Notes: generated by a model from the letters alone, not told the origin. Positions 29,740-47,061 are shown, counted from the stretch's first letter. The stretch: DNA of 64,000 bases from Syntrophorhabdaceae bacterium (GCA_963665295.1 OY762209.1:1856001-1920000), one strand, 5' to 3'. Program-made: numbers and translations.

Positions 29740-30549
29740 TCACCCCCCAATCCGCTTCAAGAGGAGAATAATACCAGGTGAAGTGAAAACCAGTTTGTGT
29801 GAGTTCAGTTTCAAGGTAGGACGACGAGAATGACAAACATCGTCATCGGAAAACTGATCCCCATTAGAAACATACAGGCAGCCCAACCTCTGACAAACTG
29901 TCTTGAGGGAGCCTTTTCCGTTCGCGCAAAATCGCGCCACATTGAATAGTCCTCCGGATGCAACCAAAAGTACCCGCCCGGGATCATTAGTAGCAGGCCC
30001 ATGAGGATTACACCGATCATGATCCATGAAACAGACGCTATCGCCTTCGCTGCTTGAGGCCCTTCGAAGAGGGCGGAGATAGTAACCGCTAAGGACCGCC
30101 GACGGTCTACAATAGACGTGTCTTATGTTCTCCCAGTTGACGCGGCGTTTCACGAGACCTAGACGCTGCACGATCTCGGCGCCGTCATTCTCAATGAATC
30201 CTCTCTCGTTCACTTCATAGCTTCCATGATTGGTGTCTATGAAGTAGAACGGTCTACCACTACGTATCGAAATTCTTTCCTGCAATCCCGTTACATTCTT
30301 TAGCTCTACGCGCGTTTTGAAGAGATGCTTGATTTCTAGATGTTCCGACGTGAGCGAAATGCGCTCGGGAGTCAACAGACTAGCACATATCCCGATCAGC
30401 CAAAGTAGCAAGGCGAGACCGACATACAGAAAAGCAACCTGAATTTTATTCAAGGCACCTCCGATGTGGCTTTGCTGGTGATCTCCATGTAAGCTATCAT
30501 TGTTCTTTTGGCTGGCTATCTGATCTCTTGGACGTAGGGGCGACTGCAT
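29740..30549 (-). CDS. Hypothetical membrane protein (PH-like segment); 3' part probably non-native read-through
   Basis: A TM segment followed by a beta-rich region. The C-terminal third overlaps the 29811-30020 ORF and looks random. Confidence 0.35.
   Translation of the reverse strand: MQSPLRPRDQIASQKNNDSLHGDHQQSHIGGALNKIQVAFLYVGLALLLWLIGICASLLTPERISLTSEHLEIKHLFKTRVELKNVTGLQERISIRSGRPFYFIDTNHGSYEVNERGFIENDGAEIVQRLGLVKRRVNWENIRHVYCRPSAVLSGYYLRPLRRASSSEGDSVCFMDHDRCNPHGPATNDPGRVLLVASGGLFNVARFCANGKGSLKTVCQRLGCLYVSNGDQFSDDDVCHSRRPTLKLNSHKLVFTSPGIILLLKRIGG
29811..30020 (-). CDS. Small two-TM membrane protein
   Basis: 69 aa ORF with two hydrophobic segments. Confidence 0.4.
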   Translation of the reverse strand: MIGVILMGLLLMIPGGYFWLHPEDYSMWRDFARTEKAPSRQFVRGWAACMFLMGISFPMTMFVILVVLP

Positions 30550-31174
30550 CCCCCGATGAGTCTGGCTTAGCGCAGTTCTTCATATAGGGCGTCAGTCCGG
30601 CCCTGGGCTTTGCGTCCGGGTATTTCTTAGCCAGTTCCTCGGCACGAATGCTGAAGGATTTCCCCTCCTCCGCACGACCTATCTCTTGAAGGGCTCTAGC
30701 ATACAAAGTGAAGTATGCCACGAACTGGCCGGGATCGGTCCCAATGAATTCTTCTTTATCTACGATCGGGATGGCCTGGCCGAAATAAGATACGGCTTCG
30801 GCGTACTCTTCCCGATCGTACTTGAGCAAGGCAAGTTCGAAAAGCGCCATGTGGGTCGGACCGGATGTTTCTTTGTCATATTTCAAAGCCTCGGTCAGCA
30901 TAAGTTCCGCGTTCTTGTGATCGCAAAGAATGCCAAGCATCCTTCCGTACGAGTATGCGGCGGCCGCGTGACGTTGGGGTTCCAAGTTTCCCATTCTTAC
31001 GTTTACCAGCGCCCGGTAATAGTTCATTTTGGCGAGTTCGTATTGACCTTCTTGTTCAGCCACGAACCCGGCCTGATAATATCTTTGGTACGTCACTCTG
31101 TTTATGGGATTCGCGCAGCTATTAAGAACAAGAAAAAAGACCCCGATCAAACAAAGTTTGTATGCTGTCGTCAT
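30497..31174 (-). CDS. TPR-repeat lipoprotein
   Basis: Lipobox LNSC, TPR-like helices (YELAKMNYYRAL, YAEAVSYFGQA), GAGG RBS. Confidence 0.7.
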   Translation of the reverse strand: MTTAYKLCLIGVFFLVLNSCANPINRVTYQRYYQAGFVAEQEGQYELAKMNYYRALVNVRMGNLEPQRHAAAAYSYGRMLGILCDHKNAELMLTEALKYDKETSGPTHMALFELALLKYDREEYAEAVSYFGQAIPIVDKEEFIGTDPGQFVAYFTLYARALQEIGRAEEGKSFSIRAEELAKKYPDAKPRAGLTPYMKNCAKPDSSGDAVAPTSKRSDSQPKEQ

Positions 31175-31308
31175 GTAGGTTTCCTCTTTGTGGGAGGCAG
31201 AGTAACACACCCATATCATTACCACTTACAACGATTTATGTCCACAAAAGATTAGAAAGAACAGCCTTTAGGAATTAAGGCGAAACTCGTTTGTCGTGAA
31301 AGGTGCCC

Positions 31309-31367
31309 ATTACGTGCAGAAAGCATTCAACGGGTGATGTAAGGTGAGGTGTTGACTTCAGGAAGAA
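31309..31367 (-). repeat. Bipartite site family, copy G
   Basis: Minus strand TTCTTCCTGAAGTCAACAC...CTTTCTGCACGTAAT; 51 nt offset; head nearly identical to copy A. Confidence 0.7.
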
Positions 31368-31378
31368 GCAGGTATCAC

Positions 31379-32347
31379 TTATTTTTTCTCAAAAGGAAAG
31401 ATAATCTTCCAATCATTCTTCATACTTATAACGACCCATCCTTCCTTTTTTGCCTTAGACATGAGAGCGTCGCTGAAGGTACCAATTCTTGATTGTGCGC
31501 CGTAGGCCCATTCGCGCTCGGCGTCATCATGATGCAGTAACACCATGAGCCTCCTTCCCCCGTTACATTGTGTCCACTCCAGCATTTGTTGATCCCCGTC
31601 GGAGTTTCCAAAAGCCGCAACGGGTTGTCTGCCGAGGTGCGAGTGGATCGTGACCGGTTTAGCGGATTTGTCGTCGATGAAAAGCATTTCCGGCAGGCGG
31701 ATCAGCACAGACTTGCCGTCCCTGATCTCATACTGCGTCTTGACGCTGCTTCCTATCACCTGCTCCGGCGGAATGCCGTACACCCTCTCTGTCCATGGCC
31801 TCATGAACTCGATGCCGCCCGCGGAAACAATGTATGTTTTGAATTCGTTCGCACGAAGATACGCGAGGAGTTCCAGCATCGGTTCGTATGTCATCTCGGT
31901 ATAGAGACGACCCGTTTTCGGGTGCTTTGCGGTAGAGATCCAATCTTCGACGATCTGCTCAAATTCGGTTGTCGTCATACCGGCGTGGGTGCTCATAATG
32001 AGTTCGGCAATCCCTTCTTTTCCGCCGGCAGTTATGCCGTCCATATTGCCTTTGAAAAGTGATGCGAAGGGTTCCCTATCCTTCCATTCAGGATGCTTTG
32101 CGGCAAGCATCTTCACGCGATCGAGGGTGAAGAGGGCCTGAAAATAATGGGGGTGCTCGGCCCAGAGTGTACCGTCGTTGTCAAATGCTGCAATGCGCTC
32201 GGCAGGTGGTATGTAGTCTGACGAGCCTTCTCTGGTCACCGCGCCGACGAATCTCATGATAGCTGTTTTGGCGGGACTATCATTCCAGGAAGGCAAAGGG
32301 TCCGGGGTTCTTGGAATCATCACCATGCACCGGAGGTTAAGAGACAA
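31379..32347 (-). CDS. HAD-superfamily hydrolase (acid-phosphatase-like)
   Basis: AFDNDGTLW, IVSAGG, AFGNSDGD motifs. Confidence 0.9.
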   Translation of the reverse strand: MSLNLRCMVMIPRTPDPLPSWNDSPAKTAIMRFVGAVTREGSSDYIPPAERIAAFDNDGTLWAEHPHYFQALFTLDRVKMLAAKHPEWKDREPFASLFKGNMDGITAGGKEGIAELIMSTHAGMTTTEFEQIVEDWISTAKHPKTGRLYTEMTYEPMLELLAYLRANEFKTYIVSAGGIEFMRPWTERVYGIPPEQVIGSSVKTQYEIRDGKSVLIRLPEMLFIDDKSAKPVTIHSHLGRQPVAAFGNSDGDQQMLEWTQCNGGRRLMVLLHHDDAEREWAYGAQSRIGTFSDALMSKAKKEGWVVISMKNDWKIIFPFEKK

Positions 32348-32609
32348 CCTCGAGATTTTTATTCATGATTTTACCTTGTCTTGAGCAATAATTACCACGA
32401 GAATTGTACGATAACAAGAAGAAATAGAATAGTTGATTGCAGAAAGAAAGATATTTTTGTGCACATACACAAAAATATAGGGTAGGTGATCAAGTTCATA
32501 ATAGAATTGCTCGGGTACTTTGAGACTGTGGAGCAGGGGAGAAAATCGGGTTCATATTCGGTCCCCTTGTCTTTTATCATAGATTCTTTCGCGAAGGAGC
32601 CTATCACGC

Positions 32610-33748
32610 TAGTGTACTGTCTCACTAATAGCTTTACAATTACCCTTGGCTATGCTATCATAGTGCATGTGGAATCCAGCCAGTACGCTAGACATGACGG
32701 AAGAGCAGAGAAAGACATTGGAAACATGGGTCAAAGCAAAGAAGACTCCCCAAAGGGTGGTTCTACGCTCCCGCATCTGCCTGCTCGCGGCAGAAGGGAT
32801 GTCCCATAACGCCATAGCGAAGAGGCTCAATACCTCCCGCCCTACGGTGATATTGTGGGTAGGCCGCTTCAGAGAACAGGGCCCCTCGGGCTTATCGGAG
32901 GACGCACCCCATGGGCCGAGTTCAAGGCGCCTTAACCCGGAGATAGTGCGCACCATCGTGGAAGCCACGCTCCATACAACTCCCAAAGATGCTACTCAGT
33001 GGTCCACCCGCACCATGGCAAAGGAGAAGGGCGTGAGCCATGCCACCGTGCAGCGCATCTGGGATGCCCATGGACTACAGCCCCATCGGGTAGAAACTTT
33101 CAAGCTGTCCAGAGACAAGAAGTTCGTGGAGAAACTGACCGATGTGGTGGGCGTCTATCTCAATCCTCCCGACAAAGCGGTGGTACTCTGTGTGGATGAG
33201 AAAAGCCAGGTGCAGGCCCTGGACCGGACCCAGCCGGGATTACCGATGAAGAAGGGGCGCTGCGGCACGATGACCCACGACTACAAAAGGAACGGCACTA
33301 CCTGTCTTTTTGCCGCCCTCAATGTTCTGGAAGGAAAAGTCATAGGCTCCTGCTATCCCCGCCACAGAAATACCGAATTTCTTAAGTTCCTGCGTACCAT
33401 AGACCGTCAGGTGCCAAAGGGCCTCGATGTCCATATGATTCTCGACAACTACGGAACTCATACCCACCCCAATGTGAAAGCATGGCTCGAAAAACACCCC
33501 CGTTTCGTTCCCCACTTTACACCCACAAGCTCGTCGTGGCTTAACCTGGTGGAGCGCTGGTTCGGGGAGATCACACGAAAGAGAATTCGTCGCGGCATCT
33601 TCAAAAGCGTTCAGGAACTGGTGACCGCCATCGAAGAATATATTCGCTGCAACAACGAAGACCCCAAACCCTTCGTATGGACCAGGAAGGCCGAGGAGAT
33701 ACTTGAAAAAGTGAATCGCTGTAAAGGCGTTACTGAGACACTACACTA
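32610..33748 (+). mobile_element. IS630-family insertion sequence
   Basis: IRs TAGTGTACTGTCTCACTAA and (reverse complement) TAGTGTAGTGTCTCAGTAA; inserted at CTAG with TA duplication. Confidence 0.92.
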
Positions 33749-33749
33749 G
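32694..33749 (+). CDS. IS630 transposase
   Basis: HTH region WSTRTMA; DDE motifs CVDEKSQ, ILDNY, WLNLVERWF. The stop codon lies in the terminal CTAG. Start could be 32667. Confidence 0.95.
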   Translation: MTEEQRKTLETWVKAKKTPQRVVLRSRICLLAAEGMSHNAIAKRLNTSRPTVILWVGRFREQGPSGLSEDAPHGPSSRRLNPEIVRTIVEATLHTTPKDATQWSTRTMAKEKGVSHATVQRIWDAHGLQPHRVETFKLSRDKKFVEKLTDVVGVYLNPPDKAVVLCVDEKSQVQALDRTQPGLPMKKGRCGTMTHDYKRNGTTCLFAALNVLEGKVIGSCYPRHRNTEFLKFLRTIDRQVPKGLDVHMILDNYGTHTHPNVKAWLEKHPRFVPHFTPTSSSWLNLVERWFGEITRKRIRRGIFKSVQELVTAIEEYIRCNNEDPKPFVWTRKAEEILEKVNRCKGVTETLH

Positions 33750-33905
33750 GATTGCACGATAAGCGGGAACCTAGGGCCGATGAAGCTCAGCCGGAAGCTG
33801 AGATCGAGGAGTGGCAAAGACGGTTTCTCGCACCCGAGGACGATCAGTTCGTGGAACTCATGGCCATGGAAATTATGAATCGATCAGGGCGCAGGCGATA
33901 GATCA

Positions 33906-34103
33906 CTACTTGCTGCTTTCCCGCAATTCTTTAAACTTCTTTCGAGCCACCTCTCCGATTTCCCTCTTGCTCCGCCTCAGTAATTCTACTTCGGACTCTG
34001 TCAGCATCCTCGGTGTTAAGTAAGTACCGGGCTTCGGATTGAGTAAGGCAGTCGAAGGAGTGAGCGAACTTTTCCTTCCACCAGTCTTCAAGCTCTTTTC
34101 CAT
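33906..34103 (-). CDS. Small helical hypothetical protein overlapping the PRTase 3' end
   Basis: ...RMLTESEVELLRRSKREIGEVARKKFKEL; start uncertain. Confidence 0.35.
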   Translation of the reverse strand: MEKSLKTGGRKSSLTPSTALLNPKPGTYLTPRMLTESEVELLRRSKREIGEVARKKFKELRESSK

Positions 34104-34675
34104 GTTTACTCCTCAGTTGTTGTAATGTACCACTTCGCAATAGTGCCGCCCATACCAATGAAATCGTCCCCAATCAGATATTCTTACCCTTCTATCGCGT
34201 TACCGTCAAAAAGCGGCTGTCCGGCAAGGCGGCCAAACCCATCCTATCCCGTATGCTCCGCTATATTTGTCTGAACTATTCTGTTTTCCACTTCAAGGCC
34301 AAGATTGTCGGCAATCTTTTCGGCAAGCGCTTCCGGGATCGCGTTTATGCCCTCGCCCTCCAAGGTGTGAACACTGATAAGAATGGGCTTTCTTCCGCGC
34401 AACAGCGTCTTGAGTGCTTCTATGGAGTCAGGGTTAAGGGTATCATTCACAAGAATAGACGCGGCCTCTGCATCTCCCGTCTTTGCCGCCGTATAAAAGG
34501 GATGCTTTTTCACCGATGTCTCTGTCGTGTGAATGATGACATCCGGGAAGTCGAATAGGGGCTTACGAAAGGGTTTCGGAAACAATCCGGGCCAAAGCCG
34601 ACGAAACACGATCTCGATATCGGATAATGACTTCGCTTCCTGTACAGCTTTTACCCACCATTCTTTTTCGTCCAT
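33931..34675 (-). pseudogene. Phosphoribosyltransferase-fold protein, disrupted
   Basis: HPFYTAAKTGD...NAIP...IVQTN..HTG*DGFGRLA. Then a frameshifted PRPP loop IGDDFIGMGGT, then LRSKHG...WW...LTQSEARYL. Confidence 0.65.
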
Positions 34676-34811
34676 ATTGAAATCATATCAACTATCAGTT
34701 CAAAGGGCAAGATGATGAGTGGCAAGAAGAGGCACCGCATCTAACCCCCCTTACGAAATATTGTTGGACCTTCTTAACTTTGGAAGTAGTCGTTATTATT
34801 AATGATGTAGA

Positions 34812-34903
<92 letters not shown>

Positions 34904-35449
34904 TTAATTGAAAAAACTTTCGGAGCAGCGTTTTGCTCTTGTCTTCGAGAATACCCCCTCTGACCTCGGCCTTGTGGTTCAGGGGGAGACTGTTTATATC
35001 GACTACTGAACAGAGGCCGCCTCTTTTTGCATCGAAACAGCCGAAAACCACCGTCTTTATTCTTGCCTCCACAAGGGCGCCCGCGCACATGACACAGGGT
35101 TCCATGGTCGCGTAGAGGGTGCATCCCGTGAGGCGATAGTTGTCGAGGACCTTCGCCGCCTCGTTCATGGCAAGGATCTCCGCATGGGCCGTCGGCGAAT
35201 TGAGGTGAATGGTGAGGTTGTGCGCCCGGGCGAGCACCTTGCCTTCGGGGGACACCACGACCGCGCCCACGGGCACTTCACCCTTGTCAAAAGCCTTGCG
35301 GGCCTCGTCGAGACACATCTCCATAAAGAACTCGTCTTCCATCGCGATAAATATACCTTTGATTCATCACAAAATCAATGATATTTGCCGGAAGAAGAGT
35401 GTGGCGCGCCGTGGACGGGGTGCTTACAATGGTAACATAAGGAGAGAAT

Positions 35450-43030: not shown

Positions 43031-43190
43031 AACGGCCCCTTCCTTCCGGTGCGGGCCTGTCGGTCGAAAGGCGACCGGCAACCCGGGCCTTGCGCCGGCT
43101 AAAGAATTCGGAACTACGGTATGAGGCCGGGTATCCCGGGAGTAATCCGTCGCGAATTTCGGAAGCACGTGCACAATGGAGGGTGGTGTC

Positions 43191-44009
43191 CTAATTTGCC
43201 TTAAGTAAATCCTTCACACTCCAAATATGATCTGTGATTCCTGCGGCCATTGCGGGAGTAACCCTAAGAGAGCTATGTACCCTCACGAAGTTATAATGCG
43301 CGAAGTGGAGCGCTACAGCAGCCTTGAGGTTCTCAAGCTTCTTACTAAAGGCATTAGTCAGACGAGTCAACCGGCGCATTTGCATTCTCATAGTCAGGTT
43401 TTGCCGTTCAATATATGATGTGGATATTTTGGACACATCTGGCCGACCGGATACGACTATCCGATCAGCCTTAATCACGTGCGGGGGGCTATACCTTCCC
43501 GGCCCGATAGGCTCAGCCTCATAGGCTTTTACCACTTGTCCATAATCCACTTCTGCACCGAATGCTAACTCAACCGCATCCACATAAGCGGACAGTGCAT
43601 CACTACTTATCTGCACTCTGTTCTCTAGCCTCTCCGATAGGTCGCTCATAAACGCACAGGCATTTTGAATTGATCTCTTGCCTACCAAATAAGCAGGGAT
43701 GAGCTTGCTATCTGCATCAAGGGCGACCCATACCCATTGATCGCCCACTTCAAACATATTATCGTTTTTAGTAAGGTGCCGTTGTTTCTTCCCAACATAA
43801 CACCATATTTCATCTACCTGGATATTCTCACATTGTAAGTGATTCATTGTGGAATCCATAATGTCTTCGCAATTCTGACCGGTGCGAACCATGAGGCGCA
43901 TAATCGTGTCTCTATGAATACCCGTCATACGCTCGACCGACCGTATAGACGTACCCTCGACTAATGCGCCTATTGCCATTGCCCGTTTCTCTGCCGATAA
44001 AATATTCAT
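43191..44009 (-). CDS. IS1-family-like DDE transposase
   Basis: HTH EGTSIRSVERMTG; IQVDEIW, ISSDAL, STSYIERQNLTMR; stop codon inside the IR; GGAGG RBS. Confidence 0.88.
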   Translation of the reverse strand: MNILSAEKRAMAIGALVEGTSIRSVERMTGIHRDTIMRLMVRTGQNCEDIMDSTMNHLQCENIQVDEIWCYVGKKQRHLTKNDNMFEVGDQWVWVALDADSKLIPAYLVGKRSIQNACAFMSDLSERLENRVQISSDALSAYVDAVELAFGAEVDYGQVVKAYEAEPIGPGRYSPPHVIKADRIVVSGRPDVSKISTSYIERQNLTMRMQMRRLTRLTNAFSKKLENLKAAVALHFAHYNFVRVHSSLRVTPAMAAGITDHIWSVKDLLKAN

Positions 44010-44046
44010 TGCAAAACCTCCCGTTGCCGTATACAATTAGGGATAG

Positions 44047-44116
44047 CGGAGCGCAGGGGTATTGAACCCCTAACGAACGGGTGTAAGCCCCGATCTGAGT
44101 CCCCAACTCGCGCCCC
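44047..44116 (-). ncRNA. tRNA-like structure (non-canonical or pseudo-tRNA) in the transposase leader
   Basis: GGGGCGC/GCGCTCC acceptor, GAGT-TGGGG-ACTC D-like arm, GATCGGG-GCTTACA-CCCGTTC arm, AGGGG-TTCAATA-CCCCT T arm, then G-CTA. Confidence 0.6.
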
Positions 44117-44194
44117 ATGACTTAGTAGGGGAACAGGTTGCTTGGTCAGCTTGTTTCCCTTTTCTTTTTGGTTGGTTATCGACTTCATGCAGAC

Positions 44195-44224
44195 TATTAT
44201 AATAAATTTATTATAATATGTCAA
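44195..44224 (-). promoter_or_regulatory. Perfect sigma70 promoter overlapped by a 24 bp palindrome
   Basis: Minus strand TTGACA(44224-44219)-N17-TATAAT(44201-44196); palindrome TATTATAATAAATTTATTATAATA at 44195-44218. Confidence 0.8.
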
Positions 44225-44265
44225 CAATATACCACTTGAAATTATAATTTTTTTATTATATAGTT

Positions 44266-44646
44266 ATGAAAGAATGGACCTTCAAGGTATTCGTTGAAAA
44301 TGGCTATTGTGACTTCGTTGAAGAGTGGGAGAAGAGACTTCCTACAAAGGCGAAAGCCAAAATGCATTGGCTAATAACGGAGATGCAAAAAATAAAAGAC
44401 TGGACACAAACGAAATATTTTCGTCCCCTCACCAATACGGAGGGAATATGCGAGTTGAGGTTCCAGGTTGGCAACGCGCAATATAGACCTCTAGGTTGTT
44501 TTGGACCTGATGATGGTTGTTTTACCTTGTTGATGGGAGCAAAAGAGGTCGGTGGGAACATTATACCAAAAACTGCTATCTGGACAGCGACAAAAAGAAA
44601 AGTCATGATCGGCAAAGACAGGAGGCATGTCGATGAGTACTATTGA
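44266..44646 (+). CDS. RelE/HigB (Gp49)-like toxin
   Basis: GICELRF...QYRPLGCF...FTLLMGAKE; toxin-first order, overlapping an HTH gene. Confidence 0.7.
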   Translation: MKEWTFKVFVENGYCDFVEEWEKRLPTKAKAKMHWLITEMQKIKDWTQTKYFRPLTNTEGICELRFQVGNAQYRPLGCFGPDDGCFTLLMGAKEVGGNIIPKTAIWTATKRKVMIGKDRRHVDEYY

Positions 44647-45187
44647 TAAACGCAAGAATAGACTATTGGAAGAACTGCAAGACAAAGAATACAGGGACGC
44701 TTATACTTCTGCGGCGGTTGACATTGGAATAGCATTTCAGATAAAGGCGTTAAGAGAGCAAAGACAATGGACTCAGATGGAATTTGGTAAAATAGCGAAA
44801 ATGGCACAAGCAAGAATACATGAGCTAGAAGATCCCGATAGGCCGCCAAGCCTAAGAACATTGAAGAGGTTGGCTAACGCATTTGATGTGGGGTTAATAG
44901 TCAGATTTGTTCCAATAAGCGAAATAGTTAAATATGATCTAGATTTGTCTGATTCTCACTCTATGGCCCTATCCTCTAACTCTGCGGGAGTTAATAGCTA
45001 CAAGGACGATGCTTATTTCAGGAAGCCAGAAGGACAAGATTCTCTTGAACTATTTATGCCTTCTCCCCCCAAAGGGCAATTTCTAGGAGCTGGAGGGAGC
45101 CAAATAATGGATATGGACACGTTTAAGCAGTCCAGAAGCCAAACCGGGTTATCATTGGGTGAAAATAATGAAGCTGCTATCCGTTGA
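44627..45187 (+). CDS. XRE-family HTH protein (HigA-like antitoxin)
   Basis: EYRDAY...IAFQIKALREQRQWTQ...ARIHELE...SLRTLKRLANAFDV.L.VRFVP. Confidence 0.85.
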   Translation: MSMSTIDKRKNRLLEELQDKEYRDAYTSAAVDIGIAFQIKALREQRQWTQMEFGKIAKMAQARIHELEDPDRPPSLRTLKRLANAFDVGLIVRFVPISEIVKYDLDLSDSHSMALSSNSAGVNSYKDDAYFRKPEGQDSLELFMPSPPKGQFLGAGGSQIMDMDTFKQSRSQTGLSLGENNEAAIR

Positions 45188-45827
45188 TCTAGCGCAAGCA
45201 TGGTGGTATGGACAACTGAAAGATTTTAATCCAAGGGGGGCTGCATGGTTGTCCATCCTTACGCCATGGTTATCGGAGGTTTATGGTTTGCAGCCAATGC
45301 AGCCCATAGAAGAGGAAGCTAAACAGGGTGCCATCAAATTTAAGAAGGGAATATACTCTCTTGCTAAAGGAGGGTTACCGATTGAAATAAGCCAATTATC
45401 TTTTTTTCCCGCTGGAATAGGAGCGCAAACATCGCACTCTACAGAAGCCTGTGAAACATTTTTGGTCGATTTGTTTACTAGACTTGCCGTAACTTTTGGT
45501 GTTCTGGAATATAGAGAAGTTATACAACGGAAAAGGTATTTCAGCCAGGTTTGGGTTAATACCGACAAAAACATAGAATTGCTCAACCCCAAACTAAAAG
45601 CGATTACGGAGTACCTTTCTAGCGAGGTTGAGGAAGGAAAGTTAAAGTTTGAAGCAGGCGGTATATCGTTTTGGCCAGACCAAACGGCGAAGTTTCCACC
45701 ATCGGCATTTGTTTTCGAAAGGGCAGGTAATATACCATTTTCGGAAAATAGGTACTTTTCTAGGGCGCCATTGACGACGGATAAACACCTTCATTTGCTA
45801 GAGATGTTGGAGAACATCTTGGCCTGA
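45168..45827 (+). CDS. Hypothetical protein (transposon cargo)
   Basis: Overlaps its neighbours; FERAG...YFSRAPL.T..H..LLE..E C-terminus. Confidence 0.65.
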   Translation: MKLLSVDLAQAWWYGQLKDFNPRGAAWLSILTPWLSEVYGLQPMQPIEEEAKQGAIKFKKGIYSLAKGGLPIEISQLSFFPAGIGAQTSHSTEACETFLVDLFTRLAVTFGVLEYREVIQRKRYFSQVWVNTDKNIELLNPKLKAITEYLSSEVEEGKLKFEAGGISFWPDQTAKFPPSAFVFERAGNIPFSENRYFSRAPLTTDKHLHLLEMLENILA

Positions 45828-46126
45828 TGGATGCCCAACTAAAAGAAACATTAGAAAAGCTTCATAACTGTATTGCCTCCTTCATTGAAGACGTTGTTGT
45901 CGTGGAGAAGTTTGGTAATAAAACGGTGTGGAGCGGCACAGTATCGGTATATGAGATTAAAGGCCATCCCCAAGCCACCAAAGCCTATGCGTGGTCTTCG
46001 CCTATCGAAGGCAGCACAAAGAGACGGTATTATGCCGTGCTTCATATCCCGCCCGTAGATTCTCCGGAGAAGGCGGTAAGGGCGGCGATAGTTCAAGATA
46101 GTCGATCCAAAAGGTTAACATCATAA
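45827..46126 (+). CDS. Small hypothetical protein
   Basis: VWSGTVSVY...GHP.A.KAYAWS...YAVLH.PPVDSP..AVRAAI; TGATG translational coupling. Confidence 0.7.
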   Translation: MDAQLKETLEKLHNCIASFIEDVVVVEKFGNKTVWSGTVSVYEIKGHPQATKAYAWSSPIEGSTKRRYYAVLHIPPVDSPEKAVRAAIVQDSRSKRLTS

Positions 46127-46150
46127 ACATTTACCTTAAGGGAGGTTTAA

Positions 46151-46915
46151 ATGGAACAGTTAGCTTTGATTCCTCACACGGTAGGAACCACACTTATTCA
46201 TCAAAGAGCTATGGATGGTTATGTAAACGCTACCGCCATCTGTAACGCCGCTGGCAAGAAATTCAATGATTATTCAAGGCTCAGCGTTACGAAGGCTTTT
46301 ATAGAAGAGCTTTCCGGGGCGGCGGGAATTCCCGCCGACCTGTTAATCTTCACTGTTACAGATGGTCCGATGCACGGACGTGGAACATGGGTACACCCTG
46401 ACGTGGCGATAAACCTTGGGCAATGGTGTTCCCCTAAATTTGCGGTTGCAGTTTCTCAGTGGGTTAAAGAATGGATTGCCAACCGATCAAAGCCGCAAAA
46501 CATGCCTTACCACATTCAGAGGTATCTGGCTAATAGAGGCGAGATACCTCCCACGCATTTTTCTATGTTGAATGAAATGATTTTTGCCCTAATAGCCCCG
46601 TTAGAGTCTGCGGGGTATACCATTCCCGACGACATGGTTCCTGATATATCGGCAGGAAGAATGTTCTGTAAGTGGCTAAGGGATGAGAAAGACATTGATA
46701 CAGATATGTTGCCCACTTATAGACACGTGTTTGAAGATGGTCGCACCGTCTTCCCCAAACTTTATCCCAATGAGGTCCTTGCTGACTTCAGAGATTATTT
46801 TCACACTAGATGGTTGCCAGAAAAGGCAGAGGCTTATTTTGGGGATCGAGACCCAAAAGCCTTGCCATATCTTAAGAAAGTTCTTCCGAAGGAACCCAAG
46901 AAGTTGAAGTCATGA
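46151..46915 (+). CDS. KilA-N domain protein
   Basis: DGYVNATAIC, GTWVHPDVAINLGQWCSPKF; strong GGAGG RBS. Confidence 0.88.
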   Translation: MEQLALIPHTVGTTLIHQRAMDGYVNATAICNAAGKKFNDYSRLSVTKAFIEELSGAAGIPADLLIFTVTDGPMHGRGTWVHPDVAINLGQWCSPKFAVAVSQWVKEWIANRSKPQNMPYHIQRYLANRGEIPPTHFSMLNEMIFALIAPLESAGYTIPDDMVPDISAGRMFCKWLRDEKDIDTDMLPTYRHVFEDGRTVFPKLYPNEVLADFRDYFHTRWLPEKAEAYFGDRDPKALPYLKKVLPKEPKKLKS

Positions 46916-47061
46916 AATAGCATTTTTTGTGCCACGGAAAGGAACTCTGGATTTCAAATTAGGACACCACCCAATAGAGCATCCTTTTGACATTCGCCCC
47001 CCCTTTCAGGGTATATTAATGGAGTTTTGCTGTTTTCATGATTGATTGCGTGTAACTTTAT

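Follow-up and report, generated by a model that had tools for sequence, protein, structure and literature searches.

Transposases are tightly restrained by frameshifting, antisense RNAs and inhibitor proteins. In the window (the whole 64,000-nucleotide stretch of Syntrophorhabdaceae DNA analysed here), the leader of an IS1-like transposase gene contains a 70-nt sequence that an earlier note, made from the sequence alone, had described as a cloverleaf and a tRNA mimic. This raises the question of whether a tRNA-like RNA in such a place is a decaying remnant or a functional molecule and, if functional, on what it acts.

The tRNA-like element and its transposon

The tRNA-like element (TLE) was located at 44047..44116 on the minus strand by covariance model, fold and alignment. 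Read from 44116 to 44047 it is GGGGCGC-GAGT-TGGGG-ACTC-A-GATCGGG-GCTTACA-CCCGTTC-GTT-AGGGG-TTCAATA-CCCCT-GCGCTCC-G, and on re-reading the sequence we recovered the stems, the loops and the G-CTA end as they had been described. The acceptor stem has 7 bp (GGGGCGC/GCGCTCC) and includes a G3:U70 wobble (G3 at 44114, U70 at 44050), on which the earlier note had not remarked. The D-like stem of 4 bp (GAGT/ACTC) abuts the acceptor directly, without an 8/9 linker. The anticodon-like stem has 7 levels with one U:U mismatch and ends in the loop GCTTACA; the T arm has 5 bp and a TTCAATA loop, and the discriminator G (G73 at 44047) is followed by CTA. Within the anticodon-like loop (GCUUACA in the RNA) the triplet UAC (44083..44085, minus strand) has a U on its 5' side and an A on its 3' side. 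In the best fold, with a 7-nt loop, it occupies loop positions 4-6, displaced by one nucleotide in the 3' direction from where a canonical anticodon lies. The minimum free energy was -35.4 kcal/mol as compared with a shuffle mean of -25.5 (z = -3.3), and 0/200 shuffles were as stable.

The TLE failed the geometry tests for a canonical tRNA at the 8/9 linker, at the 5-bp anticodon stem (its own counterpart having 7-9 levels across the TLE family) and at the placement of the anticodon at loop positions 3-5, in agreement with the missing linker and irregular anticodon geometry pointed out before. ARAGORN, run on the whole window, did not call it, the sole call being a tRNA-Ser elsewhere. The Rfam tRNA model RF00005 gave no match to the window TLE even at E up to 10 (gathering score 29 bits), and neither did the tmRNA model RF00023 (gathering score 47 bits). 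Its best Rfam matches were to tRNA-Sec at 21.2 bits (gathering score 47) and to mascRNA at 15.5 bits. Four TLE homologues were called by ARAGORN as tRNA-Stop(tta) or tRNA-Pyl(cta). The tRNA-Ser(CGA) of the window (34812-34903) lies where the G+C content falls from ~59% to 48-53% (30000-35000) and may border another island. In the host genome outside the window, ARAGORN also called a 91-nt 'tRNA-Gly' with anticodon ACC (G000:C1:1693925-1694015); given its odd length and anticodon, this may be another irregular tRNA.

The TLE is integral to a cargo transposon of the IS1 family (43181-46972; 3,792 bp), which is single-copy in its 5.5-Mb genome and has a G+C content of 41-50%, that of the surrounding region being 58-60%. 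The right terminal inverted repeat of 18 nt (GGGTGGTGTCCTAATTTG, 43181..43198) is matched perfectly (18/18) by the left one (46955..46972). These inverted repeats are perfect, and no clear direct repeat that could be a target-site duplication was seen at the transposon flanks in the window; a search for an empty site or junction in the contigs of 4 runs found no joints. The sequence AAATTAGGACACTACC was kept at the 3' end of most transposase homologues, with an inverted copy 2.3-4.6 kb upstream where the flank sufficed. The transposase gene (43191..44009, minus strand) encodes an IS1-family DDE transposase of 272 aa, and its stop codon TAG falls within the right inverted repeat. The protein matched Pfam DDE_Tnp_IS1 at 41.6 bits (cut-off 24.1) and the NCBIfam IS1 model at 70.7 bits; since the latter is below the cut-off of 100, we place it in a distant IS1 subgroup. 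The AF2 model of the transposase (pLDDT 86, pTM 0.85) has an RNase H-like core with the invariant residues D66, D137 and E201.

A consensus sigma-70 promoter (TTGACA-17-TATAAT, 12/12; 44196..44224, minus strand) reads towards the TLE and the transposase, whose ATG (44009) is 37 nt 3' of the TLE. The element thus lies between promoter and transposase ribosome-binding site, as had been proposed. Within this promoter is a palindrome (TATTATAATAAA/TTTATTATAATA, 44195-44218); in the subgroup of the window the palindrome is conserved in this promoter, which faces divergent toxin-antitoxin genes. In the window these are a Gp49-like (HigB/RelE-type) toxin (44266..44646) and an HTH (XRE-type) antitoxin or regulator (44627..45187), followed by two hypothetical proteins (45159-45827 and 45827-46126) and a KilA-N domain protein (46151-46915), all on the plus strand. 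An ATG at 44118 overlaps G1 of the TLE, and ORFs beginning MRR... lie upstream in one group of relatives (group B, below); since the frames differ between copies, these small ORFs are not protein-coding.

Conservation of fold, acceptor end and position

A covariance model (R1) was built from 9 TLE homologues, and relatives were counted in two scans (556 and 588), the best 80 of each being analysed. Similar sequences were present in the 160 nt upstream of many of the best 80 genomic transposase homologues. With R1, matches upstream of the transposase and on the same strand were found at 22/80 genomic and 28/80 metagenomic loci (best 80 homologues each), so that a similar fold does accompany related transposases. 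A scan of viral contigs gave 21 transposase loci and one TLE, with the triplet UAC. In the bacterium's own order R1 matched in 6/96 genomes, and the five new matches each adjoined a transposase homologue (73-82% identical). In 151 genomes sampled from the phylum, there were three matches of ~80 bits or more (that in the genome of the window and two new ones), along with seven weaker ones (36-39 bits) that are ordinary tRNA-Ala and tRNA-Lys; tRNA-Ala is also among the nearest canonical matches in other genomes. All strong matches were on the transposase strand, mostly 24-70 nt from the ATG, and the copies came from hosts of several phyla.

In every element of which both ends were captured, the TLE lay inside conserved inverted repeats GGTAGTGTCCTAATTT (examples are L109-L111, L113-L115, L117, L118, L123, L128, L130, L131, L134, L139 and L141). 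Passenger sets varied between elements, toxin-antitoxin genes being frequent neighbours, while the pair of TLE and transposase was constant. We considered and rejected the remnant of an integration site, with the 3' piece of a tRNA or tmRNA left at the edge of an island, as both cloverleaf halves are present and inside the inverted repeats. Tandem TLE pairs precede one transposase at L134:2763-2911 and L118:3793-3954; there the upstream copies carry the triplets UAG (L134) and AGC (L118), and the downstream copies UAC. At L042 and L027 a G+C-rich hairpin resembling a bidirectional terminator (A run/T run) lies within ~20 nt of the TLE 5' end, and the space between the two shows no obvious sense promoter.

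On the 5.5-Mb genome of the bacterium itself, R1 found the TLE as the only strong match (80.4 bits, E about 1e-15). The next matches in this genome were tRNA-Ala(CGC), tRNA-Met, tRNA-Trp and tRNA-His, at 29.7 bits or less, and the host has its own normal tmRNA gene at another place (194.5 bits). With no close canonical relative in its own genome and the tmRNA separate, the TLE is neither a copy nor a fragment of a host gene. The near-identical canonical tRNA that would point to passive capture was sought in this genome and none was found.

An alignment of 57 TLE copies, 51 of them distinct, showed that the fold is maintained by compensatory change. Standard pairs made up 94.1% of cells in the distinct sequences, and 11/17 pairs had changed on both sides. 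The covariation score was 0.287; it was 0.081 in shuffles, 0/500 of which reached 0.287, and at most 0.059 with slid partners. Acceptor pairs 4-7 covary (CG, GC, AU, UA), as does the T stem, and the D stems vary yet stay complementary (GAGU/ACUC, GACU/AGUC, GGGU/ACCC, GUGU/ACAC, GAAU/AUUC, GCAU/AUGC, GGUC/GACC, AAGC/GCUU). The D loop UGGG and the T-loop sequence GGUUCRAU were conserved, and the loop motif Y-UAC-A was nearly invariant. Three types could be distinguished: group A, to which the window copy belongs, with a D stem; group B, with a 9-nt loop and a stemless D region (GAUUGGUUC) like that of the host tmRNA (AUUGGUUUCGAC); and group C, with an acceptor of the GGGCCAC type. All of them keep both G3:U70 and Y-UAC-A. 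The nucleotide at -1 was U in 45/51 distinct copies, and CCA was encoded in 17/51.

The pairs G1:C72, G2:C71 and G3:U70 were invariant in 51/51 distinct TLEs, the window included. Together with A73 these form the identity set for alanyl-tRNA synthetase (AlaRS) that is common to tRNA-Ala and tmRNA. G3:U70 is also given as the alanine identity element in Mukai et al. (Nucleic Acids Res 2017, PMC5389517). A73 was found in 50/51 distinct TLEs; the window alone has G73, and it departs from the family further in that its transposase gene has 7 GTA codons. By both features, this copy may be somewhat relaxed. The strand-specific G:U pairs indicate that the functional RNA is on the transposase strand.

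We conclude that the TLE is a selected, functional tRNA-like RNA, far beyond chance. The preference of the earlier note for a functional mimic over decay is thereby upheld, by the covariation of 51 distinct copies and by the want of any near-identical canonical tRNA in the same genome. The element falls outside canonical tRNA, tmRNA and the known allo-tRNAs, and it carries the alanine acceptor signature save for G73 of the window.

Codon 160 of the transposase and a predicted antisense promoter

In order to compare transposase genes with and without the element, we codon-aligned 127 distinct ones, 47 element-bearing and 80 without it. Codon 160 (window numbering; GUA, Val, at 43530..43532 on the minus strand in the window) was GTA in 45/47 element-bearing genes and in 11/80 of the others, the share expected from the Val codon use of element-bearing genes being 11%. 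It was the top outlier among 83 conserved degenerate columns, the runner-up standing at 39/47. The nominal binomial P was 5e-41, the next column having 9e-18; since the sequences are related these values are overstated, and it is the rank that counts. The element-bearing genes make up what is essentially a single clade (mean pairwise identity 68%). Its sister clade lacks the element and has diverged less (mean identity 73%), yet GTT, the most frequent codon there at this column (20/31), ranks no higher than 9th of 102 columns. A further five distinct element-bearing loci outside the first codon table had GTA in 5/5.

In the two exceptions, codon and loop have changed together. L031 (GTT) and L038 (GTC) are the sole element-bearing genes without GTA, and their TLEs, with the loops UUGACA (GAC) and UUAACG (AAC), alone carry a different triplet at that position. 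In L038 the pairing of A34 with C3 is no standard wobble pair unless A34 is modified. The two loci are sister taxa, and the number of independent codon and triplet changes is small. L009, inside the element-bearing clade, has lost the element and has CTA at codon 160. The triplet is flanked by a pyrimidine on its 5' side and by A on its 3' side, as at tRNA positions 33 and 37. Additional complementarity, of UUUAC with GUAAA (codons 160-161), occurs in many copies and is not universal.

The earlier note had read the loop as UUA (ochre) or, shifted, as UAC (Val). The match to GUA codon 160 bears out the shifted reading, and the ochre reading fails because five distinct members with CUAC loops (six copies in the alignment) retain GUA160. 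Ochre suppression or read-through extending the transposase N-terminus was considered separately and rejected, since the in-frame TAA upstream of the ATG has a TAG before it in that frame. Supply of a rare codon was rejected as well: the host has tRNA-Val(GAC), tRNA-Val(CAC) and tRNA-Val(UAC), and GUA is used 12.2 times per 1,000 codons (16% of Val codons; 1,100 long ORFs), so that the TLE supplies no missing decoder. A quadruplet or +1/-1 frameshift at GUA-A was looked for in the lengths of the shifted frames, which were alike whether or not a gene bore the element.

Among the other Val codons, the GTA share was 7% in element-bearing genes and 13% in genes without the element, despite the lower GC3 of the former. 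Such a halved use of GTA would fit avoidance of off-target decoding. In the AlphaFold model, residue 160 lies in strand 154-163 (beta5) of the RNase H-like core, between D137 and E201; in element-less homologues it is Val, Ile or His, and never Ala. The second-strongest synonymous conservation was observed eleven codons after GUA160, where GGT (39/47) is followed by AGG (27/47). This site corresponds to residues 171-172 (43494-43499), and the window itself has GGA AGG.

The sequence between the TLE and the transposase start also contains a promoter-like site on the opposite strand (TTGCAA-17-TACAAT; 44009..44037, plus strand), with a predicted start at about the TLE 3' end. We scanned the 30 nt after the TLE in 52 distinct trailers on both strands, together with shuffles. 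TAnnnT was present in 50/52 on the antisense strand and in 33/52 on the sense strand (shuffle mean 29.5, maximum 40), and the extended -10 motif TGnTAnnnT in 29/52 and 0/52, respectively (shuffle mean 2.2, maximum 8). The antisense hexamer mostly ends 6-9 nt from the discriminator, which puts the predicted start at the TLE 3' edge. Just past the TLE 5' end is an intrinsic-terminator-like hairpin of 14 pairs with a T run (44127..44170, plus strand), in which G:U pairs occur on the plus strand only. An RNA running from this promoter to this hairpin would be ~125 nt long and complementary to the whole window TLE. It is better read as a regulator of the TLE than as the functional product itself, and it could serve as an antidote to a potentially harmful adaptor.

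A proposed adaptor, its rivals and its relatives

On balance, we think it probable from these comparisons that the TLE is a transposon-encoded tRNA-like adaptor acting at codon 160 of the transposase. It would be transcribed with the transposase from the shared consensus promoter and released from the transcript by tRNA processing enzymes; U at -1 and the encoded CCA fit ordinary tRNA processing. AlaRS would then recognise it through G1:C72, G2:C71 and G3:U70 (with A73 in the family) and probably charge it with alanine, the invariance of the identity set arguing that it is charged. On the ribosome, UAC would pair with GUA160 of its own transposase mRNA, and the codon 160 link argues that it is there that the two meet. 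Since irregular G3:U70 tRNAs have been reported to be processed, charged and used in E. coli (PMC5389517), we propose that the TLE competes with host tRNA-Val at GUA160, with Ala160 or an otherwise aberrant product as the most likely outcome. The fraction of normal transposase would depend on the TLE level, giving a private, dose-dependent control, and the conserved antisense promoter firing into the TLE would probably temper the adaptor. What the comparisons show directly is that the TLE is conserved and covaries, that its identity set is invariant, that its triplet changes with codon 160, and that it lies within the insertion sequence; the steps from processing and charging to decoding on the ribosome, and any effect on transposition, we infer. 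True recoding of GUA160 from Val to Ala is a possibility to which we give distinctly less credence than to the adaptor as such. We are just as tentative about the fullest form of the proposal, in which a mis-wired tRNA (Ala identity, Val anticodon) would recode GUA160 to Ala or abort translation there, the ratio of products would report the dose of the element and set transposition frequency, and an antisense 'anti-tRNA' would check the proteome-toxic adaptor.

Some observations speak against the adaptor: the irregular geometry, the failure of the window copy to pass as a tRNA with ARAGORN and Rfam, the non-standard pair of L038 together with the small number of independent changes, the G73 and the 7 GTA codons of the window, and the terminator-like hairpins next to the TLE at L042 and L027. 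Several other readings also have to be weighed. The TLE might be a cis-acting processing or insulating signal, its tRNA shape recruiting RNase P and 3' enzymes so that the transposase mRNA is severed from its leader or from transcripts reading in, while the small RNA itself has no role. Its place in a leader, with a promoter on one side and a ribosome-binding site on the other, suits such a signal, as do the U at -1, found in many bacterial pre-tRNAs and preferred there by RNase P, and the weak Rfam matches to mascRNA, itself a processed tRNA-like RNA. A processing signal, however, needs neither the invariant set of G3:U70 and A73 nor an invariant UAC-A loop, and it gives no account of why GUA is fixed 480 nt farther downstream or why codon and loop change together. 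We therefore hold it unlikely, and the RNase P/Z role named in the earlier note does not suffice for the invariant G3:U70 or for the link between anticodon and codon. That link would be kept by a riboregulator working off the ribosome, whose loop pairs directly with GUAAA (codons 160-161), in cis or in trans, and alters the folding, stability or translation of the mRNA; the codon-loop co-variation is the same, and in group A up to 5 nt are complementary. The universal part, however, is UAC with its 3' A, and copies with CCUAC or CUCUAC lose the extra pairs and keep GUA. Off the ribosome, a duplex of three to five pairs is too weak, and the alanine identity set is again left unexplained, which makes direct pairing quite unlikely.

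A similarly low probability attaches to a tmRNA-type mimic or decoy, in which the Ala-charged domain would bind SmpB or enter stalled ribosomes, or would soak up a tRNA- or ribosome-directed toxin of the Gp49/HigB-like kind. The acceptor is tmRNA-like, the stemless D region of group B resembles that of the host tmRNA, two copies gave weak Rfam tmRNA matches (L011 at 18.6 and L029 at 17.6 bits), and toxin-antitoxin genes often adjoin the TLE. Those matches, however, cover the tRNA-like ends only, all scores fall far short of the 47-bit gathering score, a messenger part is missing, and the host already has a normal tmRNA. As for a decoy, RNA and transposase stay together across elements whose passengers vary, and a decoy predicts no GUA codon in the transposase. 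We found nothing in support of the decoy for the adjacent RelE-like toxin, nor of the transposase-bound RNA, that the earlier note had offered. The antisense promoter and terminator (44009-44037 and 44127-44170) allow a further reading, that the plus-strand RNA is the functional product and the minus-strand cloverleaf incidental to it. The extended -10 (29/52 trailers against 0/52 in sense), the TAnnnT hexamer (50/52) and the G:U pairs of the terminator hairpin all lie with the plus strand. All strand-specific signals inside the TLE, however, are on the transposase strand (G3:U70, the U:G pairs of the anticodon-like stem, GGUUCRAU and UGGG), and its G:U pairs would become invariant A:C mismatches on the plus strand, so that we judge this reading very unlikely. 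That the TLE folds by chance, or is what remains of a tRNA or tmRNA captured passively and now decaying, as its rejection by the tRNA finders in the window might suggest, is extremely improbable in view of 51 distinct copies from several phyla with compensatory changes and invariant identity elements, of their strict placement inside the insertion sequence, and of the lack of a close canonical relative in the genome of the window.

The adaptor that we prefer has partial parallels in known systems. In Streptomyces, the availability of a dedicated tRNA, the bldA tRNA-Leu(UAA), gates genes with a UUA codon. The TLE would likewise be a gate-type adaptor for one codon, but here one mobile element carries both adaptor and target gene, GUA is no rare codon for the host, and the Val codon is read by an adaptor whose acceptor has Ala identity. 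Antisense control of a transposase is known from IS10 RNA-OUT, in which an outward promoter near the transposase start makes an RNA complementary to the leader; the antisense RNA predicted here differs in that it would cover the TLE instead of the ribosome-binding site. In common with tRNA-Ala and tmRNA, the TLE has G1:C72, G2:C71, G3:U70, mostly G4:C69, A73 and a canonical T arm. It differs from them in that UAC is not an alanine anticodon, in lacking a messenger domain, pseudoknots and the 8/9 linker, in its long anticodon-like stem, and in scoring below the Rfam thresholds of both families.

The closest precedent is the report of Mukai et al. (PMC5389517) on irregular tRNAs from soil and sediment metagenomes, some of them with G3:U70 and non-alanine anticodons, which occur beside toxin-antitoxin and transposon-related genes. 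According to the part of that report available to us, irregular G3:U70 tRNAs are processed, alanylated and used by the ribosome in E. coli, inserting mainly alanine, also serine and minor others, and the authors suggest that irregular tRNAs may not serve translation (PMC5389517). These allo-tRNAs and the TLE are alike in their non-canonical cloverleaf, in G3:U70 (in some allo-tRNAs) and in their neighbourhood. They differ in that allo-tRNAs, as described there, have 8/4 or 9/3 acceptor/T stems and mostly a long variable arm, whereas the TLE is 7/5 with a short variable region; the same part of the report describes neither an IS1-family location nor a matching transposase codon (PMC5389517). 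In the literature on allo-tRNA with transposase, and on tRNA-like RNAs with transposases or IS1, we found no published account of the TLE system. The earlier statement that no tRNA-like leader was known in IS1-family elements has to be qualified: irregular G3:U70 tRNAs near toxin-antitoxin and transposon genes had already been reported (PMC5389517). If the proposal is true, transposition would be subject to an additional restraint of quite another sort, namely a tRNA-like adaptor that the element brings along and that is matched to one fixed codon of its transposase. The irregular tRNAs of soil metagenomes, which seem to mistranslate and for which no role has been settled since 2017, would gain a biological purpose as well. 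With an acceptor end for alanine and a loop for valine, it would amount to natural targeted recoding carried by mobile DNA, and thus to a natural, mobile and self-targeted departure from the genetic code.

Other RNAs were observed in and around the same leader position. Other lineages of the transposase family have different odd tRNAs in the place of the TLE (L064:1228-1303, L143:209-284, L178:1870-1946, L060:1289-1361, L148:3327-3491 and L150:3068-3148). Some are of a type with anticodon ACU (Rfam tRNA 64 bits for L064 and 43 bits for L060), and others of a long-armed type with anticodon UUA, among which is one whose acceptor has 8 bp. In group B and some of group A, a conserved structured RNA of ~170 nt lies 5' of the TLE, at about positions 1250-1380 (L006, L007, L008, L012, L014, L015, L021, L029, L063, L005, L010 and L013). 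It has two covarying hairpins and a long-range pairing (GAATCGCC/GGCGATTC), and it opens with a Shine-Dalgarno site and AUG AGA AGA; the frame of this ORF differs per copy, indicating that the RNA is conserved and not a peptide. In Acidobacterial relatives that have no TLE (L066, L070, L072, L081 and L084, ~1350-1400), a short upstream ORF beginning MPPPP is found behind a Shine-Dalgarno site, with two hairpins between it and the transposase; the arrangement resembles a polyproline stalling leader.
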